A stretch of 64,000 nucleotides of DNA from a virus (Duplodnaviria > Caudoviricetes), in the IMG/VR virus record IMGVR_UViG_3300025715_000012, positions 83,413 to 147,412 of that record; one strand, 5' to 3'. Positions 950 through 51,454 of the stretch are shown here, piece after piece (the first letter of the stretch is position 1; every line of letters starts with the position of its first letter). Under the pieces are notes generated by a model that saw only the letters and a program-made list of their open reading frames with translations, had not been told where the DNA came from and ran no database searches. A program made the translations under genes and the position numbers.

Positions 950-1402
950 ATGATAATAAAGTTTGAAAATTATTTGAATGAAAACATATTTATAAAAAAT
1001 AAATATAAGAAACTTTATGATAAACTTTATGATTATATAGAGAACGGTCGTATAAGAATGATACCGAATATTTATTCAAATTTATATAGATTCAAAATTG
1101 AAAAAAATGCTGTATCAGTCGAGGATGATCCATTTGGTGAAGAAGGGGGGAGAAAAATCACTGTTGAAGTGTCAATAAAAAAACAAGTTGACATGGATAT
1201 ATTAAGATTGTATGAATATATTTTAGCAATAGATGGGAATGAAGTTGATATGCCAAGTTATTATGTCAAAAAATTATATGATTTATTGGATGATAGAGAA
1301 GAAGAAAATAGAGAAGAAGAAGAAAGGAAAAAGGAAGAACTGGAAATAAAACGTCAAAAAGAACGAGAAGATAAAATTAGAAATATAGAAGAAATATTGT
1401 AA
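950..1402 (+). CDS. Hypothetical protein with capsid-targeting-like leader and DDPFGEE motif
   Basis: MIIKFENYLNE leader; AAATATATAA at 916-925; paralogous to both halves of the next ORF. Confidence 0.75.
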   Translation: MIIKFENYLNENIFIKNKYKKLYDKLYDYIENGRIRMIPNIYSNLYRFKIEKNAVSVEDDPFGEEGGRKITVEVSIKKQVDMDILRLYEYILAIDGNEVDMPSYYVKKLYDLLDDREEENREEEERKKEELEIKRQKEREDKIRNIEEIL

Positions 1403-1406
1403 AATT

Positions 1407-2267
1407 ATGTTAATCAAATTTGAAGATTATTTAGGTGAAAGTATATTCAATAAAAAATATCAAAAATTATTTGATAATTTATATAATTATATTAAAAAAA
1501 ACATACAACTTATAGATGTTGAAACGACAAAAGATTATCCATACAACACTTATGCTTTCAACATTGTGAGATCTATTAAACCTGATTCAGATGATCCATT
1601 TGGAGAAGATTCTGAATCCAAAAAAATTAGAATAAGATTATCAAGAGGTTACGCTTCATTTACATTGGTGATCAATAAAGATATAATTGATATGCCATCC
1701 AATGATATTAGAAAATTATACAATTTGATAGATAATAGAGCTTCAATAATAAGAAAAAATATAGAAAAAGGAAAAGAAAGGGAAAAAGAGGAAAGAATTA
1801 AAAATCTTGATAGTTTTTTTGAAAAAAAAATGTCGAAAAAAGATTATTTAGACGAGTCTCTGTTCAAATCCAATAAATTATATAGCGAATTGTATAAAAA
1901 TTTATATAACTATATTCTCAAAAACTATTCTAAATTGAATGTCATAAAAGATAGAAATAATGAATACGAAATCAATCTAATAAAAACAGATCTTATGGAT
2001 GAAGATGAATTCGGTGAAGATTCATCAACGACAATTTTGAAAATAAAAATCGAAAAAAATCGTGATTTTTCTTCATGGTTTAAAGATTATTGGTATGCAT
2101 TATATATCAATGGAGATAGAATAGATATGGAATATCGATATCTCATTAAATTGTATAATTTAATAGATAAAATAGAAAAGTCAAAAGAAAAAGAAGAGTT
2201 CAAACATTCTGAAAAAGAAAAAGATGAAAAGTTGACGAGTGTTATTGATATTTTAAAAAATAAATAA
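1407..2267 (+). CDS. Hypothetical two-repeat protein, paralog of 950..1402
   Basis: MLIKFEDYLGE leader; two repeats (DDPFGEDS...IDMP..KLYNLID and DEFGEDS...IDME..KLYNLID) separated by DYLDE. Confidence 0.75.
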   Translation: MLIKFEDYLGESIFNKKYQKLFDNLYNYIKKNIQLIDVETTKDYPYNTYAFNIVRSIKPDSDDPFGEDSESKKIRIRLSRGYASFTLVINKDIIDMPSNDIRKLYNLIDNRASIIRKNIEKGKEREKEERIKNLDSFFEKKMSKKDYLDESLFKSNKLYSELYKNLYNYILKNYSKLNVIKDRNNEYEINLIKTDLMDEDEFGEDSSTTILKIKIEKNRDFSSWFKDYWYALYINGDRIDMEYRYLIKLYNLIDKIEKSKEKEEFKHSEKEKDEKLTSVIDILKNK

Positions 2268-2272
2268 AAAAT

Positions 2273-2488
2273 ATGAAAATTAAAAAATTTGATGAGCAAT
2301 TTTTATGGGATGCTGGTAATATGAAAGCTCTAAAATCATATATAGATAAAGATGATAATAAATTATATCAAATAAAAGTAAATGAGCCTTTTGAAATAAA
2401 AACAAAGGATTCAGAAACTTATTACAAATTAAAGTTCATATTGAACTCATATAAAATATCTTTCGAAGATTCTATAACGAATCTATAA
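2273..2488 (+). CDS. Hypothetical protein with leader MKIKKFDE
   Basis: ORF in operon context; leader motif. Confidence 0.6.
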   Translation: MKIKKFDEQFLWDAGNMKALKSYIDKDDNKLYQIKVNEPFEIKTKDSETYYKLKFILNSYKISFEDSITNL

Positions 2489-2505
2489 TTCAAAAAACAC
2501 AAAAA

Positions 2506-2751
2506 ATGATGGAGAATAAAAAATTCACAGATGATGAATTTGAAAAACTTTTAGATAAAAGAAATAAAACTCTTCATATGATAATGGAATCATATAATGA
2601 AAGAACAAAAGATTACGATTTATCTTTTTATAATCTTGATATAATTGAAAATGAAATATATAACCATTTAAAAACAAAGGATGATGAGTTTATAAATAAA
2701 ATAATAGAAAAAAATGATTGGATAAAAAGAAAGAGGATAGAAGAATTATAG
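2506..2751 (+). CDS. Hypothetical protein
   Basis: ORF in operon context. Confidence 0.55.
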   Translation: MMENKKFTDDEFEKLLDKRNKTLHMIMESYNERTKDYDLSFYNLDIIENEIYNHLKTKDDEFINKIIEKNDWIKRKRIEEL

Positions 2752-3390
2752 TTTCAACTTTTTAGCTACATCCATAACACCTTTGACATCTCCTTCACAA
2801 TATTTCATGATAGATTCTTTGTCTTTTCTGTTCCAATAATAATCATAAATCTTTTTTCCATCCAGTGTAGACTTGGGATTTTCTATGCCGAGAGCATAAG
2901 TAACTTCTTCGAGCGAGGCACCGAGATTTGAACCATTTTTCCATATATCATAAATATCTGTGACAAGTATTTCCCAAGGCTTTAATCCATTGAAATTCAA
3001 TGATAAAGGTATGTCTATATTATATTTATACATCTTTCTTACAATCCAAGGTATATCGAAACTTTTTATTCTAAATCCGCATATTCTTTTATTTGTTTTG
3101 CTAACTCTATCAAAGACTCCCTTTATCTTTTGAATCAATTTTTCTTCATCATCATCAATAACACTTCTTATTTGTATAACTCCTTCTGTATCATACACAC
3201 CAAAAGACATACAAATTATTTTTCCAAACTCTGGCAAAAGCGGAGCATTTTCTATATAGAAATTTTCAATGTTGGCAGACGGATCCGTCAATCTTTTCGT
3301 AAAAATATTTCTACCTTCGGCATTCATATCCATAAAATTAGGATATTCTGATGTCGTTTCAATATCAAAATAAAAAAGGTCTTTATACAT
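2746..3390 (-). CDS. DnaQ/PolB-related stand-alone 3'-5' exonuclease
   Basis: ExoI FDIET, ExoII IKSFDIP, ExoIII YCEGDV; TATATTTG box at 3423-3430 (-); start moved to MYKDL. Confidence 0.85.
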   Translation of the reverse strand: MYKDLFYFDIETTSEYPNFMDMNAEGRNIFTKRLTDPSANIENFYIENAPLLPEFGKIICMSFGVYDTEGVIQIRSVIDDDEEKLIQKIKGVFDRVSKTNKRICGFRIKSFDIPWIVRKMYKYNIDIPLSLNFNGLKPWEILVTDIYDIWKNGSNLGASLEEVTYALGIENPKSTLDGKKIYDYYWNRKDKESIMKYCEGDVKGVMDVAKKLKL

Positions 3391-3496
3391 TTTTATACTA
3401 CTTGGCATATTAATTAATATCACAAATATAGTAAATTGTTTTTAATTAAAAAAGTTGATTTGAAAAAAATAATATATAAGAAAAAAAACGTGTTCT

Positions 3497-3865: not shown

Positions 3866-3866
3866 A

Positions 3867-4196
3867 ATGAAACACTTGAAATTATATGAGCAGCTTGATT
3901 TTGAGGATCTATCGGACGAAGAACTTTTTGGTGATGAGAAAGATTTATTTCTAGGTAAAAATGGAAATACACTATATGTTTTATATGATCCAGAATGCAA
4001 ATCTGGAAGATTTAATAGATATTTGATGTATCGTGACCGATCAGATTATTATCCTTCGTATCCAAGAACTATTTTTACTCTGAATGTTTTGCCAGAAGAA
4101 AATTCTAAGATTGGATATTCATCTTATCAAGGTGGTATTCATTACACAACATGGAAAAATTTGGATCCAGAAATAAAGAAAAGAATAAAATTATGA
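3867..4196 (+). CDS. DLSDEELFG-tag cassette protein
   Basis: MKHLKLYEQLDFEDLSDEELFG N-terminus; TTWKNLDPEIKKRIKL C-terminus. Confidence 0.8.
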   Translation: MKHLKLYEQLDFEDLSDEELFGDEKDLFLGKNGNTLYVLYDPECKSGRFNRYLMYRDRSDYYPSYPRTIFTLNVLPEENSKIGYSSYQGGIHYTTWKNLDPEIKKRIKL

Positions 4197-4524
4197 AACA
4201 TATAAAATTATACGAGCAATATGATTTTGAAGATCTGTCAGACGAGGAGTTATTCGGTAAACAAGAAAAAGATTTATTTTTAGGTGAAAATGGGGGGGGG
4301 GGGGGGGGGCATTGTATATTTTGTGTCCTTCTGATAATTCACTTGATGTTGTTATATATGATCATATGGATGGAGTTGGCAAAGAAATATACCCAAGAGC
4401 AATGTTCGAATATAAATTTATTGTTAAAGAAAATTCTAGAATAGCGTATTTAGAGAATCGCAGGTTTCATTATACAACATGGAAAAAACTGGATCCAGAA
4501 ATAAAAGAAAGAATAAAAATATGA
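4193..4524 (+). pseudogene. DLSDEELFG-tag cassette gene frameshifted at a G18 tract
   Basis: Leader frame shifts at poly-G 4292-4309; downstream frame gives ALYILCP...TTWKKLDPEIKERIKI, matching the paralogs. Confidence 0.8.
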
Positions 4525-4841
4525 AACACGTAAAACTATACGAACAATTTGATTTTGAGGATCTTTCGGACGATGAACTTTTTGGTAAACAAGAGAAAGA
4601 TTTAACGATTGCAATATGTTCTGGTGATTATTATATTGTATATGCTTTTACAAATGAGATTCATATTTTTAATGAATACTTAACAAATGATGATGAACCT
4701 GGATATCCTATGAGAATATTTCATTTCGCTGAATATGTCCCAAGAGACACCCAAACCATATGTTATAGAAAAGGGGGTAATACAGCTAGATGTCTATGGA
4801 AAGATTTGTCAGAAGAAATAAAAGAAAGAATACAAATATGA
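4521..4841 (+). CDS. DLSDEELFG-tag cassette protein
   Basis: MKHVKLYEQFDFEDLSDDELFG; LWKDLSEEIKERIQI; ATGA overlaps at both ends. Confidence 0.8.
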   Translation: MKHVKLYEQFDFEDLSDDELFGKQEKDLTIAICSGDYYIVYAFTNEIHIFNEYLTNDDEPGYPMRIFHFAEYVPRDTQTICYRKGGNTARCLWKDLSEEIKERIQI

Positions 4842-5146
4842 AACATTTGAAAATATATGAACAATTTGACGAGAATGATCCTTGGGGTGAAGAGATCGTT
4901 CGTAATAATGACGAAATAAGACCAGAAATATATTTTACAATTGATTGTGATGGCGATATTGAATACGTGACTCCAATGGAATATGAAGACTTTGTGGAAA
5001 ATTTAGTAAATGGTGGAACTATACCTGTCGCTGAAAGAACCGAAGGAACTATATATCCAGATGGAAGAATTGTTTATCGGATTTGTACAGAAGTCAGTGA
5101 AGATTGGAATGATGATGTTTGGGAAGACAACGAAGTATTTATTTAA
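4838..5146 (+). CDS. Acidic protein with leader and DPWGEE tag
   Basis: MKHLKIYEQFDENDPWGEE. Confidence 0.8.
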   Translation: MKHLKIYEQFDENDPWGEEIVRNNDEIRPEIYFTIDCDGDIEYVTPMEYEDFVENLVNGGTIPVAERTEGTIYPDGRIVYRICTEVSEDWNDDVWEDNEVFI

Positions 5147-10352: not shown

Positions 10353-10643
10353 TTATTCCTCCTCTTTATTTAAAATACAATAGATATCACTTTGTTTTAT
10401 GATGTAATGTTTTTCATCACCGGCATTTAATTCTACGGATCCCCATTTTCTAAAAAACACATCATCATTAACTTTTACTTCCATCACTTCATCTTTAGTT
10501 CCGGGACCAACAGCCAACACTGTTCCTTTTAAATTATCATCTTCTTTTGCGGTTCCAGGTATTATTATACCACCTTTTGTTTTTTCTTCTGCTGGATAAG
10601 GTTTAACCAACACATGATCTTTCAATAGACTTTTTATTACCAT
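10353..10643 (-). CDS. groES: Co-chaperonin GroES
   Basis: EEKTKGGIIIPGTAKE, GTVLAVGPG, VKVND. Confidence 0.95.
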   Translation of the reverse strand: MVIKSLLKDHVLVKPYPAEEKTKGGIIIPGTAKEDDNLKGTVLAVGPGTKDEVMEVKVNDDVFFRKWGSVELNAGDEKHYIIKQSDIYCILNKEEE

Positions 10644-11031: not shown

Positions 11032-11805
11032 TTAGAAGTACCAATCCTCATCATCATAATAATATTTTCTCATACTATCATCTATCTTTGGCACTCCTTC
11101 TTTTGGCAGTCTTTCCCATCTAACACGACAAGCCGCCCTAGCCAATAACTCAACATATTCAATATCAGTTATTTCGCTATGTGTGTGCTCGCCCGAGTAT
11201 CCACAAGATAAATTTGTAACATTAGGTATAATTCCCATAAATGATGCACTATCTGTATAAATGCCAGTTCTATCGAGATAATAATTCAGCCCGCTTTTAT
11301 TGAGTTCCTTGGCTAAAGCGTCACCGAATTCATCTGTGCATCCTCTTCTGCCCATTTGATGTGTTATAACAGAGTCATATCCTCGTCTGTCGAAAGAGAC
11401 CATTCTATCAAAATTATCCGAGAAGAAATTTTTATTTTTTGATATTATTTTGTGTGCACCAGCCATGCCGCTCTCTTCACCAGCGAAGAAATAATATGTG
11501 CCGGGTATGTTTCTCTCTATCATGTAAAGTAAAATTGTCATACCATTTTTATCATCACTTCCCAGTATAGTCGTTCCATCTGATCTGATATAATTTCCAT
11601 CTATGACATGATTAACTTTTTCCATGTGCCATGAAGCAGTGTCCATATGACAAGTAAAGCAAGTTCTGCTTTTTCCTATAACAACATAGTAATTTCCACA
11701 TCCATCTTCAATATGATTTTCTGGCAAATATGGTTTCAACAAATGCTCTTGTCCGTATGTTATAGTATATTCTGTGAGTTTTAAAAAAGTGTCTAAAAAA
11801 TTCAT
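11032..11805 (-). CDS. M28/M20-family zinc peptidase-like protein
   Basis: CHMDT, LGSDDKNG, GEESG, FDRRG, YTDS, EHTHSE. Confidence 0.85.
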   Translation of the reverse strand: MNFLDTFLKLTEYTITYGQEHLLKPYLPENHIEDGCGNYYVVIGKSRTCFTCHMDTASWHMEKVNHVIDGNYIRSDGTTILGSDDKNGMTILLYMIERNIPGTYYFFAGEESGMAGAHKIISKNKNFFSDNFDRMVSFDRRGYDSVITHQMGRRGCTDEFGDALAKELNKSGLNYYLDRTGIYTDSASFMGIIPNVTNLSCGYSGEHTHSEITDIEYVELLARAACRVRWERLPKEGVPKIDDSMRKYYYDDEDWYF

Positions 11806-13107: not shown

Positions 13108-13335
13108 ATGGACATCGCTGTTTGCAACGCTTGTGGTAAATGTTGTAAGAAACATTGGATATTGAAATTAACCAACCAAAAAGAAATCGAACTTTTTGGT
13201 GATGATGTTGTTTTTGGCAACTACATATGGACTGACAGTTGTAAATATATGGGGGCTAATGGATTATGCTCTATACATGATGAAAGACAGCCCTACAAAT
13301 GTAAAGAATATTTCTGTGAAGGAAATATTATATAA
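13108..13335 (+). CDS. YkgJ-like cysteine-cluster protein
   Basis: CNACGKCC...C...CSIHDERQPYKCKEYFC; TAATTTTG at 13081. Confidence 0.8.
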   Translation: MDIAVCNACGKCCKKHWILKLTNQKEIELFGDDVVFGNYIWTDSCKYMGANGLCSIHDERQPYKCKEYFCEGNII

Positions 13336-13594
13336 TTTCATCTGTATTTTCTCGAGTTAATCCTGGAAACATGCCAGATGATTTCATATCGTGGAATAAT
13401 CTCGATATGTGTGATTTTCCGCTTTCGGTTACATCATCCAATTTCGATTCAGAGAAGAACCCTCGCCAAAATTTCAAGCTCTCTTCTAACTCCGGATAAT
13501 CATATGGAATCAAAGGAGTAATTGTTACTTTACCGTGCTCTTCTTTTCGTTCTTCACCCCAAGGGTCGTCTTCATTGAATATATCTGTGCTCAT
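13328..13594 (-). CDS. Hypothetical protein with N-terminal DDPWGEE
   Basis: MSTDIFNEDDPWGEE. Confidence 0.7.
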   Translation of the reverse strand: MSTDIFNEDDPWGEERKEEHGKVTITPLIPYDYPELEESLKFWRGFFSESKLDDVTESGKSHISRLFHDMKSSGMFPGLTRENTDEII

Positions 13595-13884: not shown

Positions 13885-14244
13885 TTATTTTTGTTTTGAG
13901 TTAATTGATATCAAATGACCAATAAAATTACCCATCTTATCAGAAGATATTACTTCATTGATCTTACTTTCTAATTCATCATCTTTGATATAAAATGTTT
14001 CATTATTTTTGAAATAAAAGATTGTTAATGATATATTACCAATCATATCTAAAAAACAAATTTCAAATATCTTACAACTAACATTATCCCCATATTTTAT
14101 TTTAAAGTCTAGTATGATTTTATTATCCACGATTCGATGTTCAATTAAACCGTTTAAAACACCGCCACTATCTAATGATAAAGATGATGAATATCCATTA
14201 AGTAATTTAACGATTCTTTCACTATATATGTCTTCTGTTTTCAT
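13885..14244 (-). CDS. Hypothetical protein
   Basis: 119-aa ORF in operon context. Confidence 0.5.
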   Translation of the reverse strand: MKTEDIYSERIVKLLNGYSSSLSLDSGGVLNGLIEHRIVDNKIILDFKIKYGDNVSCKIFEICFLDMIGNISLTIFYFKNNETFYIKDDELESKINEVISSDKMGNFIGHLISINSKQK

Positions 14245-14407
14245 ATTTCACCATTGTTAATTCATTATCGATAATATCAATTACTCTTTCAATTAAATAT
14301 TTTGTATAACCAAAATCTATTGATGAATGTGTTATGTGCCACTCAGTTTTACCAGCAGGTAATTCTTCGCCCCAAGGATCATCTTCGTTGAATATATCTA
14401 CGATCAT
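14222..14407 (-). CDS. Hypothetical protein with N-terminal DDPWGEE
   Basis: MIVDIFNEDDPWGEE, same N-terminus as 13328..13594. Confidence 0.65.
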   Translation of the reverse strand: MIVDIFNEDDPWGEELPAGKTEWHITHSSIDFGYTKYLIERVIDIIDNELTMVKYENRRHI

Positions 14408-17528: not shown

Positions 17529-17945
17529 TTATTTGGTCCAAGACCAATTCAAAGTACTTTTTGTTTCGAACATCGTTTTATAGTCTGTTGCTGTATCAAT
17601 AGGTCGACTAATTTTGAGATTGGTGAAATCTTTCAGATTAAAATTATCAATTATTCTTTTGATTTCTTCTTCGGCTTTAGATATTCCGCTTTCTAAGACA
17701 TACCAATAATTTGATCTCATAAAACCATCTTCTGGCTCAGTCATGCAAGTCTCTCTACCTCCCCAAGTTCCTATTTCGTTTTTAAACAATTGATAAGTGA
17801 TGGTTGTCAATGACGCATCATATCTTTCCCATTCGTCAGCGCTTGCATCCTTATGAATCTCTAAATCAATACTTACAATTTTTTCAATGATCTTTTTTTC
17901 TTCTCCCCAAGGGTCATTTTCATCCATTTCTTTCATATCAACCAT
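17529..17945 (-). CDS. Hypothetical protein with N-terminal NDPWGEE
   Basis: MVDMKEMDENDPWGEE. Confidence 0.7.
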   Translation of the reverse strand: MVDMKEMDENDPWGEEKKIIEKIVSIDLEIHKDASADEWERYDASLTTITYQLFKNEIGTWGGRETCMTEPEDGFMRSNYWYVLESGISKAEEEIKRIIDNFNLKDFTNLKISRPIDTATDYKTMFETKSTLNWSWTK

Positions 17946-18391: not shown

Positions 18392-18675
18392 AAACTTTTT
18401 ATTTTTTTAATATCTTTTTTTCTTGTTGGATATACAGTTAATATAACATTTCTTTTCTTGGAAAAAACACACCAAAGTTGGATATTCTTATACAACACGA
18501 TCATTTTATATGTTTTATGTCTGCTTGTTTGCTTAAAAAGAACATTTTCTTCTTCTTCTTTTTGACAAATATTACATAATTTAACATAATCCTCATTTTT
18601 TAAAGGAGATCTACCTGGAAATTTTTCTTCAAATCTTTTTAAAGTATGTTCTTGATGCGTATTAATCTTTTCCAT
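18388..18675 (-). CDS. Hypothetical protein with weak RelE-like RNase features
   Basis: HTLKRFEE...VILTVYP. Confidence 0.55.
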   Translation of the reverse strand: MEKINTHQEHTLKRFEEKFPGRSPLKNEDYVKLCNICQKEEEENVLFKQTSRHKTYKMIVLYKNIQLWCVFSKKRNVILTVYPTRKKDIKKIKSL

Positions 18676-19145
18676 TATTTGTCAAAAGTATATGGATTGT
18701 AAAGATAAGTTGATTTTTTTTCATATTCGTCATAACTCCTTGTCCATTTCCCCCAAACACTATCCATCTTTTTTTTCAATTCTTTTTCTTTTATTAATTG
18801 TTCCATTTTCTTTTCATATTCCTTTTTCTTTTCACTCAAATCCCAAGATTTTTCACAAATTTTTGTATAAATTTCCTTGGAGTCTTCACCCCATTCATCT
18901 CCCTCATTTAAAATGGTTTCTATTTTATAAACTTCAACTTTCACTTTATCGTGATGACAAAATTTATCTGGCACAATAAAATATCTTATTTCTTCGTTTA
19001 TAAAAATAAAGTCATTGTCATACACCACATCATTATCATGTATAACAACAACTCTACCTTTTATATCATATCCTGAAAGATTGAGAACATCAATCCTATT
19101 TGTGTCATTCTCTATGAATAACATAAATTTTTCACTATTTGGCAT
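18675..19145 (-). CDS. Hypothetical protein with DEWGEDS variant motif
   Basis: TATATTTG at 19166-19173 (-). Confidence 0.65.
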   Translation of the reverse strand: MPNSEKFMLFIENDTNRIDVLNLSGYDIKGRVVVIHDNDVVYDNDFIFINEEIRYFIVPDKFCHHDKVKVEVYKIETILNEGDEWGEDSKEIYTKICEKSWDLSEKKKEYEKKMEQLIKEKELKKKMDSVWGKWTRSYDEYEKKSTYLYNPYTFDK

Positions 19146-33292: not shown

Positions 33293-33971
33293 TGTCAAAA
33301 AACTTTTTGTGAAATATCATGGTTATGTTGAATGTCTACATATAGCTAAGATTTTGGCTAATATGGGATTTAAAGTTTATGGATACAATTTCACATTTAA
33401 GAGTCATTTGATTGATTTATATATGGATTATAAGGGATTATATTTTAAATATGATGAAAAGTTTGAAACGCCATATTTTACTCTGATAGATGATGATTCA
33501 ATTGAAGGATATAAAACTATTGAATATGAAGATTTTATAAAAATTATTAAAAAAGATTTTCCAGAATTCATGGCAAAAAAATTAAAAAGAAAAATAACTG
33601 AAGATGATCCTTGGGGCGAAGATTCTACATTTGAAAAATTTAATATATACAATCATATGATAACAAAATTTCAAATATTCGAGAAAAGATTTCATCCGGC
33701 CGTGGGTGAATATTATCAAATAAATTACTGGGTTACAGGAGAAGTTGCGCCTGTTAAAATTTTAAAAGTCAATCCGAATAATACTTATTTGGTTGGATTT
33801 GATGTTGAAGGAAGCTCGGTCCGAGGAGCTCCGAATGTCGTTATAAAAAATTCTGATATTGTTGCTCCATATAAACCAATAAGAAGTCCGGTTGGATCAG
33901 GGTTTATATCAACGAACACGAATATGAGTATACGTCAGGTGCATCAAGTTTCAAATGATATGTACTTGTAA
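33285..33971 (+). CDS. Two-module tagged protein
   Basis: DDPWGEDS, then internal leader HMITKFQIFE preceded by TAATATATA inside the ORF. Confidence 0.7.
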   Translation: MIDVKKLFVKYHGYVECLHIAKILANMGFKVYGYNFTFKSHLIDLYMDYKGLYFKYDEKFETPYFTLIDDDSIEGYKTIEYEDFIKIIKKDFPEFMAKKLKRKITEDDPWGEDSTFEKFNIYNHMITKFQIFEKRFHPAVGEYYQINYWVTGEVAPVKILKVNPNNTYLVGFDVEGSSVRGAPNVVIKNSDIVAPYKPIRSPVGSGFISTNTNMSIRQVHQVSNDMYL

Positions 33972-33980: not shown

Positions 33981-34457
33981 TTAACTATCTTCTCCCCAAG
34001 GATCATCCAATTTTTGCTCTTCTGGTAAATCTTCTATCGCAAAATATATATCATTGAATATTTTCTTTAAAGTGGACTCTCTTCTTCTTTTACAATATTC
34101 ATATGGCTGTAATCCAATTTTTGGTCCAGTATCGTTGAAACTATCTATAATATGATCTCCGCGTAAAACAATGGCATCATAAAGCATAAATTGGTATTCT
34201 TTTTCAGAAACATATTTAAAAATATAAATATCATAATTCTTATGATGACAAAGGGCATATGTTGAATAATCGGTAGATTTGCCATAAGCGGCTTTAAACT
34301 CTATATTTGGAAAATCTCTTATTATTTCAAATCCAGCAGCATTTAGAATCTCGGTTTCAAAATCATTGAAATATGGTCGTTCTTGATTATTTTGAATTCT
34401 CCTTTTACGAATTTCATCATCTGATGGCATGAATTTGAACTGTTCGAAACTCTTCAT
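33981..34457 (-). CDS. Leader protein with C-terminal DDPWGEDS
   Basis: MKSFEQF; TAATATATA at 34478-34486 (-). Confidence 0.75.
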   Translation of the reverse strand: MKSFEQFKFMPSDDEIRKRRIQNNQERPYFNDFETEILNAAGFEIIRDFPNIEFKAAYGKSTDYSTYALCHHKNYDIYIFKYVSEKEYQFMLYDAIVLRGDHIIDSFNDTGPKIGLQPYEYCKRRRESTLKKIFNDIYFAIEDLPEEQKLDDPWGEDS

Positions 34458-35759: not shown

Positions 35760-36116
35760 ATGAATATTCTCAAATTCAATACTTTTAATTCTGTAAATGA
35801 GCAAGATGATAATGGTTTTTATGTCGGGCAAAAAGTTTCTTTAAAAGAAGAATTGATAGGTGGTTACTCAGCATATTTTACTAGAAGAGTTATAAAAGAT
35901 AATGATGGGACCATTGTTCGTATTAACTTTAATATGGAATATCCATTAATTATCGACTGGGGAGATGATTCTGTTGCCAATTATCGTGTGAGTGAAATAA
36001 TACCAAAGGGAATGAAAATAAAAAGAAAACAAAATCTAAAAGACGATCCTTGGGATGAAGAAAATTGGGGGCATGAATTTGTGAAAGAAAATCATAAAAA
36101 GTTTTTTAATATATAG
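35760..36116 (+). CDS. Protein with leader, SH3-like domain and DDPWDEENWG tag
   Basis: TAATATATA at 35728; near-duplicate of module 1 of the next ORF. Confidence 0.75.
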   Translation: MNILKFNTFNSVNEQDDNGFYVGQKVSLKEELIGGYSAYFTRRVIKDNDGTIVRINFNMEYPLIIDWGDDSVANYRVSEIIPKGMKIKRKQNLKDDPWDEENWGHEFVKENHKKFFNI

Positions 36117-36135: not shown

Positions 36136-37134
36136 ATGGTTAATTCTTTTTATGTCGGGCAAAAAGTTTCTTTAAAAGAAGAATTGATAGGTGGTCGCTC
36201 AGTGTTTTTTAGTAGAAGCGCTATAAAAGACAACGATGGAACTATTGTTGATATTAATTTCAATAATGAATATCCATTAACTATCGACTGGAAAAACTCC
36301 AAGGATGTTGATTACACAAAATGTTATCGTTATGGGGTAGATGAAGTTGTACCAAAGGGGATGAAAAGAAAACTGAATTCGGATGATCCCTGGGGAGAAG
36401 AGAATTGGGGATGGGAAGAAGTGAAAGAAAATAATAACTATAAAGGTTTCAATATTGGAGATGAAGTTTTTGTACATGGGCACATGTCCAACATTCACTT
36501 TACTGGTCAAAAAGGAACTGTAATAAAGATTTTTGATTATTCAGATAGAATTTTAGTTAAATTTCCAGAACGATTTGATGACAATTTACACGATGGAAAT
36601 GGAGATGATGAAACAAATAGTTCATATTATATTGATTATGAACTTTTAACATTAGCCGACAATAAAAAAAGAAGAAGAAAACAAAATCTAAAAGACGATC
36701 CTTGGGATGAGGAGTATTGGGGATGGGAATTTAAAAGAAAAACCAATCCAGATGATGATCCTTGGAATGAAGAAGACTGGGGATGGGAGGAAGTAAGTGA
36801 ATCTAATAAATTTGATAATTTAATTGATTATTATATACCTTTTAAAACGAAAGAAGAAATGATCACAATAGCTAAAAAATTGGATGAGTTGGAATATATT
36901 GTTGCAAATTATAGAGAAGTTATTGTTGGAGTAGGATTTGATAATCCAGGACACAAGGTTTATTGTTACCATAAAGGAAAATTTATGAGGGCGACAATAG
37001 ATTTTGCTAATTATAATAATAAAAAAAAATTGAGCCTTGAAGATCTCATTGGGTTCAAAAAAGGAAAAAGAATAACTAATCCAGATGTTGATCCTTGGAA
37101 TGAAGAAGACTGGGGATGGGAAGAGATAAAATAA
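36136..37134 (+). CDS. Multi-module protein with four DPWxEExWGWE tags
   Basis: Three cargo domains, each followed by a basic linker and the tag; TAATATATA at 36107. Confidence 0.8.
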   Translation: MVNSFYVGQKVSLKEELIGGRSVFFSRSAIKDNDGTIVDINFNNEYPLTIDWKNSKDVDYTKCYRYGVDEVVPKGMKRKLNSDDPWGEENWGWEEVKENNNYKGFNIGDEVFVHGHMSNIHFTGQKGTVIKIFDYSDRILVKFPERFDDNLHDGNGDDETNSSYYIDYELLTLADNKKRRRKQNLKDDPWDEEYWGWEFKRKTNPDDDPWNEEDWGWEEVSESNKFDNLIDYYIPFKTKEEMITIAKKLDELEYIVANYREVIVGVGFDNPGHKVYCYHKGKFMRATIDFANYNNKKKLSLEDLIGFKKGKRITNPDVDPWNEEDWGWEEIK

Positions 37135-39411: not shown

Positions 39412-39819
39412 TTATTCTTCTTCTCCCCAAGGATCATCCTCTGGACTCAAATTGCTTTTTTTTCTTTCTGTTTTATGATAAATGGTGTTATCAAAATTAT
39501 TATCAATATATCTCCTTAAAATAACCTCGTAATATTTCGTGTTTGAAAACATCCTATCTTTCATTTCTTCGTAATATTTCTCAGTGGATAATTGAGCAAA
39601 GGATGTTGCAACACCGTCTTCATAACGAATTTCGAATAAACCATAAGGTTCTTTAGTAACTTCATCGAAGCCTCCACCATCTTCTTTTAAAGTTCTATTA
39701 TAACTATATCCACATTTACTACAAAAAATATATTCTTCATCGCTTTTGTAGTAATATTCATCAAAGCACTCGCTTTCACATCTCGGACAAGAATAATCAT
39801 ATGATATAACGCTTCCCAT
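39412..39819 (-). CDS. Zinc-ribbon protein with C-terminal DDPWGEEE
   Basis: CPRC, CSKCGY. Confidence 0.75.
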   Translation of the reverse strand: MGSVISYDYSCPRCESECFDEYYYKSDEEYIFCSKCGYSYNRTLKEDGGGFDEVTKEPYGLFEIRYEDGVATSFAQLSTEKYYEEMKDRMFSNTKYYEVILRRYIDNNFDNTIYHKTERKKSNLSPEDDPWGEEE

Positions 39820-40334: not shown

Positions 40335-41111
40335 ATGGATTCACAGACATTCAAAAAGTTTTTTGAAAACTCTAGCACATATCATTCTTTTACAGATATT
40401 TTAAATTTGGCAAAAGAAACATCAGATTATATCTACAACAACGATATAATAAAAAGTAAGTTGTTCAACTCCTTTAAAGAAACCGATAAAGGATTTCAAC
40501 TCATTTTTGATAGAGTAGATAAAGATGATATATTTATAGACGCTAGCAAAAAGACAATTAAAGATAAAGAAGGAATAGATATAAATTTAGATAAAGCCTA
40601 TAGTGACATCGAAGATTTATATAGAGATATCAAATTGGAATTTTATGTAAATATAAAACAGATGAACGAAGGATTAAAAACCTTTGAAAAGTTCGCTGGA
40701 AATAAAATAAAAACTTTCTCTGAAATGTCTTTGATAAATGAAAAATTTACAGAAGAGTTTGATATGAAACTATCAGATGATTATAAATCTTTAAAGAAAG
40801 GAATTTTAGAATTAATTGATCAAACATTAAAAGGTGATGTTACAAAAATACAAAAATTTATCAATGATTATATTGAAGAAGACTCGGAAGAGGTCTTGGA
40901 TGGTTTCATCGAAGACGCGGACATATTCGATACCTATTTGAAATACCAATCGGATATAGACGAATTGCTTGATGAAGAATTAAATTATTTTAATGATGCT
41001 CCAACAGAAATTGGATTATATAATTATGTTGTTCGCGGAACATTTGAAGCAGTTGTCTATTGTATGAAATTAATAAAAGAAGAATTATTTGGAAAAGAAG
41101 AAAATGAATAG
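40335..41111 (+). CDS. Acidic protein with several leader-like segments
   Basis: TFKKFFE, NEGLKTFEKF, IKTFSEMSLINE. Confidence 0.75.
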   Translation: MDSQTFKKFFENSSTYHSFTDILNLAKETSDYIYNNDIIKSKLFNSFKETDKGFQLIFDRVDKDDIFIDASKKTIKDKEGIDINLDKAYSDIEDLYRDIKLEFYVNIKQMNEGLKTFEKFAGNKIKTFSEMSLINEKFTEEFDMKLSDDYKSLKKGILELIDQTLKGDVTKIQKFINDYIEEDSEEVLDGFIEDADIFDTYLKYQSDIDELLDEELNYFNDAPTEIGLYNYVVRGTFEAVVYCMKLIKEELFGKEENE

Positions 41112-41364
41112 AATTAAACTATACGAACAATTTGATTTTGAGGATCTCTCGGATGAAGAGCTCTTTGGTAAAAAAACTGCACCAGAAGTTGGAGACAGGA
41201 TTTTAATTTTAGATACATTAAGATATTACGTTATTCGACATGAATGGGATAAAAATATGTTAGAGATCATAGGAAAAGAGACCTATATCACTGAAATTTA
41301 TCATAATAAATATTATATAAGAGAAGGTTGGTACGTTTATAGAGATTGTTTTGAAATAATTTAG
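41104..41364 (+). CDS. DLSDEELFG-tag cassette protein
   Basis: MNRIKLYEQFDFEDLSDEELFG; paralog of the next ORF. Confidence 0.8.
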   Translation: MNRIKLYEQFDFEDLSDEELFGKKTAPEVGDRILILDTLRYYVIRHEWDKNMLEIIGKETYITEIYHNKYYIREGWYVYRDCFEII

Positions 41365-41371
41365 AAAAAAT

Positions 41372-41662
41372 ATGAAACATTTGAAACTATACGAACAATT
41401 TGATTTCGAAGACCTATCTGACGAGGAGCTTTTTGGTAAAAAAACTGAACCAGATATTGGAGATAAAATTTTAATTTTACCGAATTTAAAAGATTATATT
41501 TATGAATACAATTGGTCTGAAAAGATGTTGGATTTTATAGGAAAAGAATTTTCTATTACTAAAATAGTATTAAAAAATGATTATATAAGTCTTTATAATC
41601 AAAATAGATATTATATAAGAGATGGGTGGTTTATTTTTAGAGATTGTTTTGAATTAATTTAG
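41372..41662 (+). CDS. DLSDEELFG-tag cassette protein
   Basis: MKHLKLYEQFDFEDLSDEELFG...YYIRDGW..RDCFELI. Confidence 0.8.
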   Translation: MKHLKLYEQFDFEDLSDEELFGKKTEPDIGDKILILPNLKDYIYEYNWSEKMLDFIGKEFSITKIVLKNDYISLYNQNRYYIRDGWFIFRDCFELI

Positions 41663-41669
41663 AAAAGAT

Positions 41670-42020
41670 ATGAAGCATTTAAAATTATATGAGCAATATG
41701 ATCTCGAAGATCTCTCAGATGAAGAGATTTTTGGTGAAGAAGTGAAAAGAAATATGTTCAAAGCTAAAGAAGGATACTATGCTATTGAATTGAAAAGAAA
41801 TATGAGAGGCGAAAGACTTTATTTATATAAAGATTTTGAGTGGATTGATGTTGAAACTTATAATAAACATATTGTGAATGATTATCCGTTCTTTAACTTT
41901 GATGAATTAAATGATGATGATGAAATAATGATATATAATGATGGAATTTGGAATAAGCATAGAAAAAAAGATCTTCCAGAAAATATAAAAAAAGAAATAA
42001 ATGATTTAAATTTTTTATGA
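41670..42020 (+). CDS. DLSDEEIFG-tag cassette protein
   Basis: MKHLKLYEQYDLEDLSDEEIFG...KDLPENIKKEI. Confidence 0.8.
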   Translation: MKHLKLYEQYDLEDLSDEEIFGEEVKRNMFKAKEGYYAIELKRNMRGERLYLYKDFEWIDVETYNKHIVNDYPFFNFDELNDDDEIMIYNDGIWNKHRKKDLPENIKKEINDLNFL

Positions 42021-42349
42021 GACACGTAAAACTATATGAACAATATGATTTCGAAGATCTCTCGGACGAGGAGCTTTTTGGGACAAATAGAGGACCTTAT
42101 GACAATATTTTAGAATATGGTGAGAATGGACAGGAATTTAAAGCCGGTGATAGAGTTGTTTTAAAAAAAGATCAAAACCGACATTTAAGAGAAGGCGAGA
42201 TAGGAACTGTAGTTTGTTGTTCTGCTGACGATTACTTGATTTGTTTCGATTTTTATACATATGGGCATGAAGGAAATCCAGATGAAACTTATAATATACC
42301 CAGTGGTCACGGCTGGTATGTTCAAGAAAAATATTTAGAAAAGATATGA
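42017..42349 (+). CDS. DLSDEELFG-tag cassette protein with KOW/SH3-like cargo
   Basis: FKAGDRVV...GEIGTVV...GHGWYV. Confidence 0.8.
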   Translation: MRHVKLYEQYDFEDLSDEELFGTNRGPYDNILEYGENGQEFKAGDRVVLKKDQNRHLREGEIGTVVCCSADDYLICFDFYTYGHEGNPDETYNIPSGHGWYVQEKYLEKI

Positions 42350-42684
42350 AACACGTAAAACTATATGAGCAATTTAATTTTGATGATTTTTCGGACGAGG
42401 AGCTTTTTGGTGGACCAGAGAAAGATCTAAATTTGATGGCTACCGCTGATGATGATGGTAACAATAGTTACTATGTTGTTAAAAAATCTTATAAGAAAGA
42501 TCATTATGTCATTTTATTTGATGATGAATCCAATGTGGAGATTGAAGACGCTCTATTTGGAAACATAGATCCTCCACCTCCATTAGAAAATAGTAAAATT
42601 TCCGTTTTTGTAAATAGTAGAGGATTCGATGAATATAAATGGAAAGATCTACCTAAAGAAATAAAAGATAGAATAAATATTTAA
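42346..42684 (+). CDS. DFSDEELFG-tag cassette protein
   Basis: MKHVKLYEQFNFDDFSDEELFG...KWKDLPKEIKDRINI. Confidence 0.8.
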   Translation: MKHVKLYEQFNFDDFSDEELFGGPEKDLNLMATADDDGNNSYYVVKKSYKKDHYVILFDDESNVEIEDALFGNIDPPPPLENSKISVFVNSRGFDEYKWKDLPKEIKDRINI

Positions 42685-47813: not shown

Positions 47814-47831
47814 AAATAAATAAAATATATT

Positions 47832-48422: not shown

Positions 48423-48922
48423 TGGAAAAAAAATTCAATGACTTCATAAAAAACTCTGGTGAGTATATTTTATGTGCATCTATTTGGTATAAAGACTTGG
48501 AATTGAAACGTCCTGATGTCTTAGAGCCCAACGGATTTCGACCTTATAACGTGAACAAAGGAATAGTTTTTTCTGGTTGGCGTCATCACAATTGTTTATA
48601 TCAAATGGTTGCTATGACTGGCAAGGCTCAACACGAAGTCGGAGAAGAAATTCAAGGATTTTTAACCAGTAAAAATCGTTTTGTGGATAGAGAAGAAGGA
48701 GCCAAAATAGCATACGAAGCTGGTCAAATTGGAGATGACATAAAAATTCTATATAGTGAAGACTTATATCCAAGAAGTAACAGAGAAAAATTCATGGAAC
48801 TAGTAGATGGCGAACAATCAGATATTGTGGAAAAAATTTCTGAGAGAATTAAAAAACGTTCAATTCCAAAAGTTCCACCCGAGGATAGAGAAACACTCTT
48901 TGAGGGAGGATTTATACCCTAG
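48422..48922 (+). CDS. Conserved phage hypothetical protein
   Basis: CASIW, GWRH, QGFLTSKNRFVDREE, LYSEDL. Confidence 0.7.
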   Translation: MEKKFNDFIKNSGEYILCASIWYKDLELKRPDVLEPNGFRPYNVNKGIVFSGWRHHNCLYQMVAMTGKAQHEVGEEIQGFLTSKNRFVDREEGAKIAYEAGQIGDDIKILYSEDLYPRSNREKFMELVDGEQSDIVEKISERIKKRSIPKVPPEDRETLFEGGFIP

Positions 48923-49358
48923 GAAACAAACTCGGATTAATTTTTGTAGTATCTATTTTATTAACTTTCAAGAATTTGATAATATCGTTTACACCTTTTT
49001 TATCGAAACACATTTTATCGGATCCAATGTACGCTTCGTATTTATTTGCTAGACCAATATACAACTCAATACTAACACCTGGCTCGGTTGCGTTTAATGT
49101 AATCTTATTGTCATTAAAATCATAAGCTTTTTTTAACGTGATCGCTCTAAAAAGATCTCCGCTGTGATTCAAATAAACATTGATTTTTGGTTCAAACTCT
49201 GGATAATTCTTTTTCTTCAATTCTTTGGCTGTATCCGCTATTCGACGCCCTCTAGGATCATCTCTATTATAACCTATATCAGTAATTCTATCATAAGTTT
49301 CTGGACTCAACTCTTCGTTTGTTTTGTTATATTCTTCATAAGATAATATTTTTTTCAT
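48912..49358 (-). CDS. Hypothetical protein with leader MKKILSYEEY..TNE
   Basis: Leader; CAATATATA upstream on the minus strand. Confidence 0.7.
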   Translation of the reverse strand: MKKILSYEEYNKTNEELSPETYDRITDIGYNRDDPRGRRIADTAKELKKKNYPEFEPKINVYLNHSGDLFRAITLKKAYDFNDNKITLNATEPGVSIELYIGLANKYEAYIGSDKMCFDKKGVNDIIKFLKVNKIDTTKINPSLFPRV

Positions 49359-49498
49359 ATTTTTAATTATTTTTTTTTTGTATATATTGATATTTTTTTT
49401 TGTTTTTTAAAAAAATATATTAATTTTGTATAAAATTAGAAAAAACTAATTAAAAAAGTCTAATATATAATATATAGAATTACGTTCTTTGATTTATT

Positions 49499-49876
49499 GG
49501 GCCCGACAGATCTAGACAGCGAAGTGAAATAGCGAAAACGCATGTATCGCAATGTCTATAAAGCGATTAATACAGTATGTAGGCTAAATTTAAATGGCAA
49601 TAAAATAAACGCTGAGGATATTATGTCATATCCCACAAGTCTAACCAAAAATGTTGTTACTGAATCATTGGTTAAAGATCTTGTTTTAGCGTAAGCCGAC
49701 AGAAAATTCAGTTAACTCTTTTTGATGATCGTTTAAAGAGTATAAATAAAAGCGATTGACTTTTTTTAGTTCGGTCTAAAAAACTAAATATTTTGTTGAT
49801 TTAGAAAAATTAAATAAACTTGTAGTATGTTTCTTAAAGACTTTGTTGGACGAGGGTTTGATTCCCTCCGGGTCCA
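49499..49876 (+). ncRNA. ssrA: tmRNA
   Basis: Acceptor GGGCCCG/CGGGTCC with G3:U70 and discriminator A; T arm GAGGG-TTTGATT-CCCTC; tag ORF 49596-49694 ending LVLA*. Confidence 0.9.
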
Positions 49877-49888
49877 CACAGAAAATAA

Positions 49889-49914
49889 AAAACCCGGCTA
49901 AAACCGGGTTTTTT
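49889..49914. terminator. Bidirectional terminator
   Basis: AAAACCCGG-CTAAAA-CCGGGTTTTTT. Confidence 0.8.
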
Positions 49915-49919
49915 ATTTT

Positions 49920-50201
49920 TTAAAAATGTCCTTTAACATATTCTTCTATTATATCAATTTCTTCTTCTCTAAGATCTTTTGTATCTTCAAATTCGACTTT
50001 TTTACTATAATCACCCCAATATTCATCAGATTCTTCAACTGTCCCTTCATATTCTTTGTCACCATAAAACAGACTCCATCTTTTAACGATGAGACTATTG
50101 ATCACACTCGATTCATAATTAGATATTTCCTTTTGCTTTATCGGAGCGTCTTCACCCCAAGGATCATCATCAGATTGTTCGTATAGTTTCAAGTGCTTCA
50201 T
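49920..50201 (-). CDS. Acidic protein with leader and DPWGE tag
   Basis: MKHLKLYEQSDDDPWGED. Confidence 0.8.
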   Translation of the reverse strand: MKHLKLYEQSDDDPWGEDAPIKQKEISNYESSVINSLIVKRWSLFYGDKEYEGTVEESDEYWGDYSKKVEFEDTKDLREEEIDIIEEYVKGHF

Positions 50202-50527
50202 ATTTTTATTCTTTCTTTTATTTCTGGATCGAGATCCCCCCATTTTGTGTAGTTTAAACGCCTGTGAAACGCACCTCTGTATACTATTACTGATGTATAT
50301 CTAATTCTAGTATCATAATCAATTTCAGAATTAAAAGAAAACATGCTTTTTGGATACATACGCGTGCCTCCACAATAAACAGTAAACATATCATTTTCTT
50401 GGGGCACGAGAACATAAAATCTGGATTTGTGTTTACCCAACACTAAATCTTTCTCTTTTTCGCCAAAAAGCTCTTCATCCGACAGATCCTCGAAATCAAA
50501 TTGCTCATATAGTTTCATATGTTTCAT
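50198..50527 (-). CDS. DLSDEELFG-tag cassette protein
   Basis: MKHMKLYEQFDFEDLSDEELFG...TKWGDLDPEIKERIKI. Confidence 0.8.
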   Translation of the reverse strand: MKHMKLYEQFDFEDLSDEELFGEKEKDLVLGKHKSRFYVLVPQENDMFTVYCGGTRMYPKSMFSFNSEIDYDTRIRYTSVIVYRGAFHRRLNYTKWGDLDPEIKERIKI

Positions 50528-50541
50528 TAAAAATATATATT

Positions 50542-50727
50542 CTATTTTCTTTTTGAAAAATAATTATCTATTTTATTGTGTAAAAGGCCGATTAAAATTG
50601 CCAATCCACTCAAAGAAACTGCTATGATATTTGTTATTGGCGTGTATAAACCGAAATATCCCATAACAACAATAATAAAAATTAATGTTATGACTATCAA
50701 TGTTGCTGAAAATTTTAATGAGTTCAT
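50542..50727 (-). CDS. Small two-TM membrane protein
   Basis: Two hydrophobic helices. Confidence 0.55.
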   Translation of the reverse strand: MNSLKFSATLIVITLIFIIVVMGYFGLYTPITNIIAVSLSGLAILIGLLHNKIDNYFSKRK

Positions 50728-50743
50728 TTATTTTTTATTTTTT

Positions 50744-51454
50744 TTATTCTATTGGTAGATAATCTATTAAAGATGATATATCTTCGTCATCATCACCATC
50801 ATCTTCTTCGTTATCATTATCTTTTAAATCTATTTCTCCAATATGTTTTACTATGAGCGGCTCTTTTGTTGGCGGTCCGCCTTCATATTCTTCCGAGACA
50901 TACTTATCGAAACCTTTTATATGGCTTTCATATGTTGTTTCTTCACCCCAAGGATCATCTTCCATAAGTTTTTCTTTTCCTTCAAAGGGCAATAAATCTT
51001 CTAGTCTATACCAACATGTTTTGCCATTGTCAAATCGAACTTTGTAATCATATGGGTTCCAATCATTTGAAGGAAAATAATCAATGATCACTCCTATTTT
51101 GCCCGCAAAGAGGACCGCGCTCGGAACAATTCTAACTTTTTTTCCAATTTTTCTGAAGTTTGAATTTTCATTTATATGGCTTTCATATTCAAATTTTGTC
51201 TCTTCGCCCCAAGGATCATCTTCAATTCTTATTTCGCGTTTTATTTTCTTTTCTTTTATTGGCAATAAATCTATGTCTCTATATTCATTTCTATGTCCAT
51301 TGCTCCATTTAACACAATAAAAATAATCATCATTATCATCATAAAGTTTCACAACAACACCAAACCCATCTCCACCCTTTTCCATAGCTTGATCATAATA
51401 TTGAGAATCTGGGTTAATCCTAACTTTTTCGCCTATTTCATATTTATATATCAT
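50744..51454 (-). CDS. Two SH3-like modules, each followed by DDPWGEE..YESH
   Basis: IGEKVRI..VKWSNG.RN.YR and IGKKVRI..VRFDNG...YR; TAATATATA at 51461 (-). Confidence 0.8.
   Translation of the reverse strand: MIYKYEIGEKVRINPDSQYYDQAMEKGGDGFGVVVKLYDDNDDYFYCVKWSNGHRNEYRDIDLLPIKEKKIKREIRIEDDPWGEETKFEYESHINENSNFRKIGKKVRIVPSAVLFAGKIGVIIDYFPSNDWNPYDYKVRFDNGKTCWYRLEDLLPFEGKEKLMEDDPWGEETTYESHIKGFDKYVSEEYEGGPPTKEPLIVKHIGEIDLKDNDNEEDDGDDDEDISSLIDYLPIE

Follow-up and report, generated by a model that had tools for sequence, protein, structure and literature searches.

A short peptide tag with the core D-P-[W/Y/F]-x-E-E-x-W recurs on otherwise diverse proteins encoded in the window analysed here, a 64,000-nucleotide stretch of DNA that covers bases 83413-147412 of the linear 147,412-bp IMG/VR virus record IMGVR_UViG_3300025715_000012 (GC content 28.7%). 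It is characteristic of a whole clade of huge phages with low GC content (the Mahaphage group), where about 10% of proteins carry it, and it looks like an undescribed address label. That it is a portable short linear label is supported by its occurrence on unrelated proteins. The label probably has one common reader. Among the possible functions, loading into the core of the phage head with accompanying processing is ranked first and is put forward tentatively; docking to a hub outside the virion comes second, a protease or degron signal third, and a linker that nothing reads last.

The record is a fragment of a large phage. Of its 224 open reading frames (ORFs), 82 have homologs (30-82% identity) in LR756501, an uncultured phage of 735 kb. 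This is the largest genome in the 'Mahaphage' clade (Al-Shayeb et al. 2020), which is predicted to infect Bacteroidetes (PMC7162821). Since the record is a fragment of a phage related to such a large genome, the CheckV estimate of 80% completeness is probably too high. The proteins encoded by one huge phage number from hundreds to a thousand, and a role is known for almost none of them. An invariant peptide on about one protein in ten sorts this proteome into a labelled and an unlabelled part, and the tag peptide, for instance as EDDPWGEENWGWEE, is usable as bait for its reader.

Occurrence of the tag in the window

The window was scanned in six frames with the pattern DP[WF][GND]E, and a wider pattern also admitted variants. 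The scan returned 23 copies, 22 of them within 17 ORFs and one orphan. This matches exactly the initial annotation, which had counted 22 copies by hand in the same 17 ORFs (with the starts 4790 and 32276 given there as 4838 and 32288; two copies each in the ORFs at 32276 and 50744 and four in that at 36136). The variants DEFGED, DEWGED and DPYWEE and the orphan copy named there were all recovered, and the K/R-rich stretch ahead of the tag and the xWG[WYH]E extension are both real. Its description of copies at both termini and between domains was borne out as well, with 8 N-terminal, 10 internal and 7 C-terminal copies. By the wider pattern, 26 of the 224 ORFs of the record, about one in nine, are carriers. 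The copies and variants are located in the window as follows.

1127-1144, plus strand: internal tag DDPFGEE (ORF 950-1402)
1593-1610, plus strand: internal tag DDPFGED (ORF 1407-2267, a paralog of ORF 950)
2004-2021, plus strand: variant DEFGED in the second repeat (ORF 1407-2267)
4877-4894, plus strand: tag NDPWGEE right behind the leader MKHLKIYEQF (ORF 4790-5146)
13550-13567, minus strand: N-terminal tag at residue 10 (ORF 13328-13594)
14363-14380, minus strand: N-terminal tag at residue 10 (ORF 14222-14407)
17898-17915, minus strand: N-terminal tag at residue 11 (ORF 17529-17945)
18882-18899, minus strand: internal variant DEWGED (ORF 18675-19145)
19579-19596, plus strand: tag behind the leader MKHIKLYEQL (ORF 19528-19782)
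22717-22752, minus strand: C-terminal long form KRILNLKDDPWGEENWGWEEISEN behind an SH3-like domain (ORF 22702-22992)
23017-23040, minus strand: orphan copy KRKLNLEDDPWGEENW between stop codons
29031-29048, plus strand: tag near the N-terminus of a leucine-rich repeat (LRR) protein, PF12799, 1.9e-16 (ORF 28926-29558)
32597-32614, plus strand: linker tag DDPFGED..WHWGEIKES (ORF 32276-33292)
32903-32938, plus strand: linker tag KRKQNLEDDPWNEEDWGYEEIKEK behind a MIB/HERC2-like SH3-type barrel (ORF 32276-33292)
33606-33623, plus strand: linker tag (ORF 33285-33971)
33987-34004, minus strand: bare C-terminal tag DDPWGEDS, then stop (ORF 33981-34457)
36045-36080, plus strand: C-terminal long form (ORF 35760-36116)
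36385-36420, plus strand: linker tag 1 of a bead-on-a-string protein (ORF 36136-37134)
36697-36732, plus strand: linker tag 2 (ORF 36136-37134)
36757-36792, plus strand: linker tag 3, in tandem with tag 2 (ORF 36136-37134)
37090-37125, plus strand: C-terminal tag 4, ending WGWEEIK, then stop (ORF 36136-37134)
39418-39435, minus strand: bare C-terminal tag DDPWGEEE, then stop, of a CxxC..CxxC protein (ORF 39412-39819)
50148-50165, minus strand: tag behind the leader MKHLKLYEQ (ORF 49920-50243)
50939-50956, minus strand: linker tag 2 behind SH3-type barrel 2 (ORF 50744-51454)
51200-51217, minus strand: linker tag 1 behind SH3-type barrel 1 (ORF 50744-51454)
53409-53432, minus strand: C-terminal variant DIDPYWEEIWH, then stop (ORF 53403-53900)

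The orphan copy looks like the remnant of a lost unit of domain and tag.

The tag lies far above chance. The whole 147,412-bp record contains 32 six-frame copies against 0.25 expected from order-2 Markov simulations, and its called ORFs contain 30 against 0.09 expected, with a maximum of 2 in 300 within-protein shuffles. The reversed pattern, used as a control, gave no copies in all five records.

Anatomy and portability of the tag

The tag is found in three contexts. In the first it stands right behind the N-terminal leader MKHLKLYEQF and a few acidic residues. The second, to which the core is extended in this sub-lineage, is a long form, [KR][KR]KxNLxDDPW[GND]EE[ND]WG[WYF]EE[IV]xE[NS], placed behind small domains either at the end of the protein or as a linker in bead-on-a-string proteins; three such ORFs are present in the window (32276-33292, 36136-37134 and 50744-51454), and a 601-residue example is encoded upstream in the genome. 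The third is a bare DDPWGE[ED]x at the C-terminus.

BLAST groups the carriers, with tags and leaders masked, into at least six families and leaves 14 singletons (E 1e-4), which rules out that they are a single full-length family. They include LRR proteins (identified by Pfam), two kinds of SH3-type barrel and a paralog pair, and 60 units of domain plus tag from the record and its relatives fall into 34 clusters. The peptide is thus portable among unrelated proteins, as had been claimed from the window alone. One domain occurs in two formats, either with a 22-residue N-terminal leader (window 41372-41662) or with a C-terminal tag (36% identity, E 1e-10), and the leader-format gene stops exactly where its homolog runs on into the tag KRKLNLEEDPWGEENWGWE. 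The order of the beads is shuffled between homologs.

AlphaFold models of two tag-domain-tag units, containing an alpha/beta bead and an SH3-type bead, respectively, have predicted local distance difference test (pLDDT) values of 71-89 for the domains and 30-60 for the tags, and in neither of the two, which derive from shallow alignments of 10 and 6 rows, is a tag packed on its own bead. Within the limit of such alignments the tags look like flexible tails or linkers. The best Foldseek matches of the SH3-type bead are MIB/HERC2 and CPH domains (top 2dk3 and 3dkm, with weak E-values), and a weak Pfam match also points to a MIB/HERC2-like identity of this commonest bead. The alpha/beta bead model has no match in the PDB by Foldseek.

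Distribution among phages and cellular genomes

A 32-position profile of the long form, searched against 1.84 billion representatives (E <= 1e-3), recovered 90 protein clusters, all metagenomic, with 271 tag copies and up to 12 copies per protein. The spacing between tags in these clusters peaks at 105-125 residues (about 115), and most of the proteins end 9-16 residues past the last tag. The wider logo reads K-K-x-K-[KR]-I-x-N-[PL]-[ED]-x-D-P-[YFW]-G-E-E-[DN]-W-G-[YW]; D, P, E, E and W are essentially invariant across the 90 clusters, and the aromatic residue is kept too. Searches with DNA patterns recovered the W form of the tag in sister contigs, and more than 25 large IMG/VR contigs have the Y form, with at least 120 stretches between them.

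LR756501 gave 105 matches to the pattern and none to the reversed pattern. Its 108 copies, nearly all DPYGEExW, are spread over 92 of 1047 ORFs, with 45 C-terminal, 42 internal and 21 N-terminal behind a leader of the type MIKKFxxFE. Exactly two residues follow the W in 28 of the 45 C-terminal copies, and 41 of the 108 begin 8-12 residues ahead of the stop, compared with 2.4% expected. Carriers with Pfam assignments include a deaminase fused to a CCA-adding enzyme and an HD domain, an S-adenosylmethionine-dependent (SAM) methyltransferase, a GNAT protein and a nucleotidyltransferase. Among GenBank phages only LR756501 and LR756503 match the tag query, and a tblastn search of GenBank phages with a whole bead protein gave no match.

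In 185,579 bacterial and archaeal species genomes DPYGEExW occurs only as single matches (72 stretches), never in multiple copies, and about 20 of these stretches are enolase; mimicry of a host peptide was rejected on this basis. A few of the cellular matches are short low-GC contigs with phage-style C-terminal tags. Four of them (L225, L281, L289 and L249), 3-8 kb contigs in Bacteroidetes/Bacteroidales and other metagenome-assembled genomes whose proteins end in RIFSEIDPYGEEDWEN and a stop, are probably mis-binned fragments of the clade and at best a weak hint of a Bacteroidota host.

The nearest cellular look-alike is the enolase segment SIEDPYGEEDWG(H/N)F, present in L224 and about 20 other Lactobacillaceae loci (L237-L293; Enolase_C, 4e-94). 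A genome-wide pattern scan showed the near-identical string SIEDP[YF]x[EQ][ED]DWG in Lactobacillaceae enolases, where it forms a buried strand-turn-helix of the TIM barrel of one conserved protein, whereas the tag is portable. Pfam found no match to enolase in the carriers, and the likeness is most likely convergent. No paper was found in which DPWGE, DDPWGE, WGWEE, DPYGEE or PYGEEDW appears in a relevant sense, in agreement with the novelty assumed in the initial annotation.

Selection on the peptide

In the record, the Asp, Gly and Glu codons inside the tag follow genome usage, and the Pro codon is CCT in 25 of 30 copies (83%), compared with 25% genome-wide. Tag codons are skewed in LR756501 as well (CCT 69% vs 34%, TAC 73% vs 36%, GGT 67% vs 51%), and the skew is not found at other D-P dipeptides. 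Possible causes are a codon-pair effect or selection for critical residues to be translated accurately. The synonymous variation reported earlier for the tag therefore exists but is not neutral, given the preference for CCT. The aromatic residue of the tag differs by lineage, being W (27 copies) or F (3) in the record and Y in LR756501. Since all copies but the orphan are in frame, their usage of Asp, Gly and Glu codons matches that of the genome and the aromatic residue depends on the lineage, selection acts on the peptide, and the randomised Gly, Asp and Glu codons show that the copies are not recent DNA duplicates. An element acting at the DNA level was rejected on the same grounds, all copies but one being in frame, with varying Gly, Asp and Glu codons and an aromatic residue that changes by lineage.

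These data bear on whether the tag needs a reader at all. The least likely reading is that the tag is an independent element, a linker or cap that nothing reads (such as a turn or helix started by Asp-Pro with an acidic solubilising tail), and that it spread with shuffling mini-domains by duplication and recombination. The shuffled bead order, the tandem duplication of tags and the orphan remnant would suit such a history, the skew towards CCT, TAC and GGT could come from DNA copying, and the structured enolase look-alike SIEDPYGEEDWG shows that a string of this kind can be an ordinary fold element. Set against this are the position of the tag at either end of unrelated folds, enzymes and membrane proteins, the stop two residues past the W, and six invariant residues across lineages whose domains are less than 40% identical. 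Because of this precise stop and the invariance of six residues in such diverged lineages, specific recognition is favoured.

Association with an N-terminal leader

Nearly every MKHLKLYEQF leader of the record precedes either DDPWGE or DFEDLSDEELFG, an acidic aromatic-Gly stretch that follows the same leader, in the place of the tag, in about 15 other small genes. Small leader genes are grouped at two sites of the window.

3867-4841, plus strand: three small genes (3867-4196, 4151-4444 and 4479-4841) with the alternative 22-residue leader MKHxKLYEQxDFEDLSDEELFG
41104-42684, plus strand: five tandem small genes with the leader MKHLKLYEQFDFEDLSDEELFG, including 41372-41662

In LR756501 the tag is present in 20 of the 31 ORFs with a MIKKFxxFE-type leader and in 72 of the 1016 others (odds ratio 24, p 4e-15), and the association stays when N-terminal tags are left out (odds ratio 8.8). 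The initial annotation had taken the tag to be independent of capsid targeting, a view that this co-occurrence does not bear out statistically.

A DeoC-type aldolase (PF01791; window 52653-53402, plus strand) bears a leader of the MKHLKLYEQF type as an N-terminal extension. It is the most conserved protein common to the record and LR756501 (82% identity), the leader of the ortholog being MVKNFDKFVRE, and it seems an odd bearer of a capsid-targeting-like leader.

The capsid-targeting sequence (CTS) of phage T4 is MKTYQEFIAE. In this sequence aromatic residues stand at the targeting-critical positions and I..E at the processing-critical positions (positions per PMC9026906). The internal proteins of T4 are a diverse set with only such a targeting peptide, 10 residues long and N-terminal, in common (PMC3012670).

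Possible loading into the phage head

In the function ranked first, one common partner would read the tag as a docking or address label, and the likeliest reader would be a part of the T4-type prohead core, either the protease or the scaffold. Together, the tag and the capsid-targeting-like N-terminal leader would bring accessory 'cargo' proteins, which are small and evolve fast, into the head or keep them there. In this lineage, precursors of the bead-on-a-string type would be cleaved at [ILV]-x-E behind each internal tag, and each bead would then keep a C-terminal tail like that of the single-domain carriers. We infer that a reader exists, that it sits in the head and that cleavage happens.

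The relatives G002 and LR756501 encode a T4-type gp23-like major capsid protein (PF07068, 5e-25), and relatives have a gp21-like protease domain in one chain with a long scaffold built of YAEYIAEN repeats. In LR756501 a 178-residue paralog of this protease domain ends in the tag NELDPYGEENWSE, and other residues replace the His and Ser of its GEFDHPD and SSRAAG motifs. C-terminal propeptides, suggested to serve in targeting to the core, are lost from T4 gp21 and Alt, and the head proteases of T4 and of giant phages cleave after Glu (PMC9026906). The leaders and the scaffold repeats both fit this cleavage rule because they end in [IL]-[FY]-E and I-A-E-N, respectively. Behind the tag, [ILV]xE[NS] is found at +12 to +15 in 24 of 25 aligned long-form copies of this lineage, all with protein sequence beyond, and copies at the extreme C-terminus stop short of this site with the endings WGWE or WGWEEIK. 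Judged from the sequences, the pattern would be the expected look of a processing site rather than of a docking element. The head module, the leaders, their co-occurrence with the tag, the tagged paralog and the [ILV]xE pattern together favour a label tied to head assembly, with the bead proteins as precursors.

The protease-scaffold fusion, which has an acidic tail, lies at 73913-76336 of LR756501 (L056) and at 1420-3348 of L046 in G002. Its YAEYIAEN-type repeat resembles the core of the T4 CTS and has I-A-E in each unit.

A TAATATATA box is found 25-30 nt ahead of the start codons of the LR756501 ORFs at 71969, 73913, 76415 and 78282, which are the portal, protease-scaffold and capsid genes and the next gene, and ATATATA is present in 162 of 356 upstream regions of this genome against 13.5 expected. 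The box looks like a late promoter, reminiscent of the TATAAATA of T4.

Several observations weigh against head loading. Tagged genes show no enrichment for the TAATATATA late promoter, either directly or by operon (19 of 92 vs 194 of 955), and an early/late table for tagged genes, based on a crude classifier, gave p 0.09. Outside the long linker form, [ILV]xE behind the tag is only modestly enriched (38% vs 23%), and the likeness of the leader to the T4 CTS is confined to a short pattern. The gp21- and gp23-type genes are seen in relatives and were not found in the 147-kb fragment. Transmembrane-like segments occur in 7 of the 92 LR756501 carriers, near the background rate; such carriers do not sit well with a role as capsid cargo, ejection-type proteins excepted. 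Cytoplasmic-type enzymes are also among the carriers (the CCA-adding enzyme/deaminase fusion, the methyltransferase and GNAT). Finally, if leader and tag both serve only to target the head, a tag directly behind a capsid-targeting-like leader seems superfluous.

Possible docking outside the virion

The second possibility, a doubtful one, is that the tag docks its carriers to a hub that lies outside the virion, for instance a compartment, condensate or factory built by the phage or a chaperone/adaptor complex; in this hub multi-tag bead proteins would serve as multivalent scaffolds and single-tag enzymes and small membrane proteins as clients. The portability, terminal preference and invariance of the tag apply to it equally, and up to 12 tags about 115 residues apart in one chain have the architecture of a multivalent scaffold. 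The commonest bead, a MIB/HERC2-like SH3-type barrel, belongs to a fold that binds peptides elsewhere. Tags on membrane proteins and cytoplasmic-type enzymes, and the lack of late-promoter bias among tagged genes, are also in its favour, as is the presence in the clade of its own GroEL/GroES and, in one relative, of an Hsp70 gene. However, no candidate hub stands out, AlphaFold put no tag in cis on a neighbouring SH3-type or alpha/beta bead, and the link with a capsid-targeting-like leader and the tagged head-protease paralog are left unexplained.

A broader form of this idea, a clade-wide addressing code whose reader gathers about 10% of phage proteins into one phage-built assembly, with bead proteins of up to 12 tags as the scaffold and single-tag proteins as clients, is considered unlikely. 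If true, it would be the bacterial-virus counterpart of organelle targeting or of scaffold-client condensates.

Candidate proteases

Still less likely, a phage protease recognises or processes the tag, which would be either a degron for timed removal or a propeptide to clip; the candidates are an M16B (MPP/pitrilysin-type) peptidase and a retropepsin-like aspartic protease of the clade. The M16B peptidase, a core gene of the clade, has an intact HxxEH motif (HLMEH) and is encoded in the record upstream of the window (G000 48559-49704; L217:985-2127). Of 20 tag-bearing records, most of them fragments, 10 contain it, and the two most complete ones, LR756501 and a 243-kb relative, have two paralogs each. 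Enzymes of the M16 family take off targeting or leader peptides in organelles and in pathways for ribosomally synthesised and post-translationally modified peptides, which would suit such a role here. The gene for the retropepsin-like protease (DTGS/DTGA) is convergent to that of a multi-tag protein in two distant members of the clade, and the enzyme is 44% identical between relatives. Degrons are usually terminal, moreover, and a transfer-messenger RNA (tmRNA) is also encoded in the window.

Against a protease signal, the chambers of MPP-type M16 enzymes prefer basic over acidic peptides, the retropepsin-like gene is found in only 2 of 20 records, and a tag occurs every few kb, so that closeness to a tagged gene is weak evidence. 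The invariant 8-residue core with its basic stretch exceeds what most cleavage sites need. Prediction of a complex of two copies of M16B with the tag gave a score of 0.00, which is no answer and no evidence either way.

The retropepsin-like protease, about 135-145 amino acids long, is encoded at L049:11539-11946 (minus strand), L055 1441-1860 (minus strand) and L052:1417-1851 (plus strand); in two distant members the same 288-amino-acid gene comes after it, and a single-sequence locus search gave no match. It was rejected as the cognate enzyme for its presence in only 2 of 20 records, despite adjoining multi-tag genes in two members. A PHROG 'peptidase' at 11032-11805 of the window was dropped as a candidate, being M20 peptidase T-like with many paralogs.

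Depending on where the reader sits, the label has different uses. If the reader is the prohead core, as head loading would have it, the labelled set is a catalogue of proteins co-injected with the DNA, likely effectors of host takeover and anti-defence, and the tag could load foreign proteins into capsids. A reader elsewhere would point to a level of organisation inside the phage-infected cell that has so far gone unrecognised.

Comparison with known systems

The T4 CTS of IPI-III and Alt resembles the tag in that a short peptide is the only common part of diverse, fast-evolving accessory proteins (PMC3012670, PMC9026906); relatives in the clade also have a T4-type capsid protein and gp21-like protease, and the leader that co-occurs with the tag resembles the CTS and ends in [IL]-x-E. 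The tag itself differs from the CTS, which is strictly N-terminal, 10-19 residues long and removed. Its sequence is unrelated, it is found at either end or between domains, with up to 12 copies per chain and on about 10% of the proteome, and the 8 N-terminal, 10 internal and 7 C-terminal tags of the window are not placed as N-terminal propeptides of the T4 type.

Encapsulin cargo-loading peptides are short and terminal and dock unrelated enzymes inside a shell of the HK97 fold. The tag shares with them the character of a portable address on diverse proteins, whereas its sequence is unrelated and it is also internal and tandem; no encapsulin shell gene was seen. The SSB tail (DDDIPF) and the tails of T7 gp2.5 and gp4 are, like the tag, acidic with Pro and an aromatic residue, and they serve in docking to a hub. 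In SSB tails the aromatic residue is needed at the extreme C-terminus. The tag has two residues past the W, many copies are N-terminal or internal, and the carriers are not DNA-replication proteins. The analogy with SSB tails drawn in the initial annotation fails on this anatomy, as C-terminal tags end two residues past the W (28 of 45 in LR756501). Its other analogy, with eukaryotic DPW/DPF motifs, comes down to three residues, and no reader of the AP2-appendage or EH-domain type is known in bacteria or phages.

In having one motif on many proteins together with multi-copy bead proteins, the clade resembles the Rubisco-binding motif of the pyrenoid and multivalent scaffolds of SH3 domains and proline-rich motifs. 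Those systems are eukaryotic with known readers, whereas the tag of the clade shows no docking in cis in the models. With regard to viral polyproteins, the tag linkers are regular and about 115 residues apart, and gp21-like, M16B and retropepsin-like proteases would be candidate enzymes on sequence grounds.

Genomic context

The window also encodes a phage GroEL (7837-9453, minus strand; PF00118, 2e-76; 77.5% identity with the GroEL of LR756501) and a GroES (10353-10643, minus strand; PF00166, 3e-21). ARAGORN identified a tRNA-Arg(TCT) at 21077-21149 (minus strand) and the tmRNA at 49499-49877 (plus strand), whose own tag peptide ends in VKDLVLA. An intein with a LAGLIDADG endonuclease domain splits a flavodoxin/FMN-reductase-like gene at 29555-31486 (plus strand). 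Upstream of the window, G000 55274-65848 (minus strand) is a single ORF of 3,524 residues without assigned function. At the far end, 61557-63998 (minus strand) encodes a large protein with collagen triple-helix repeats (PF01391, 8e-38) that continues past the window end.

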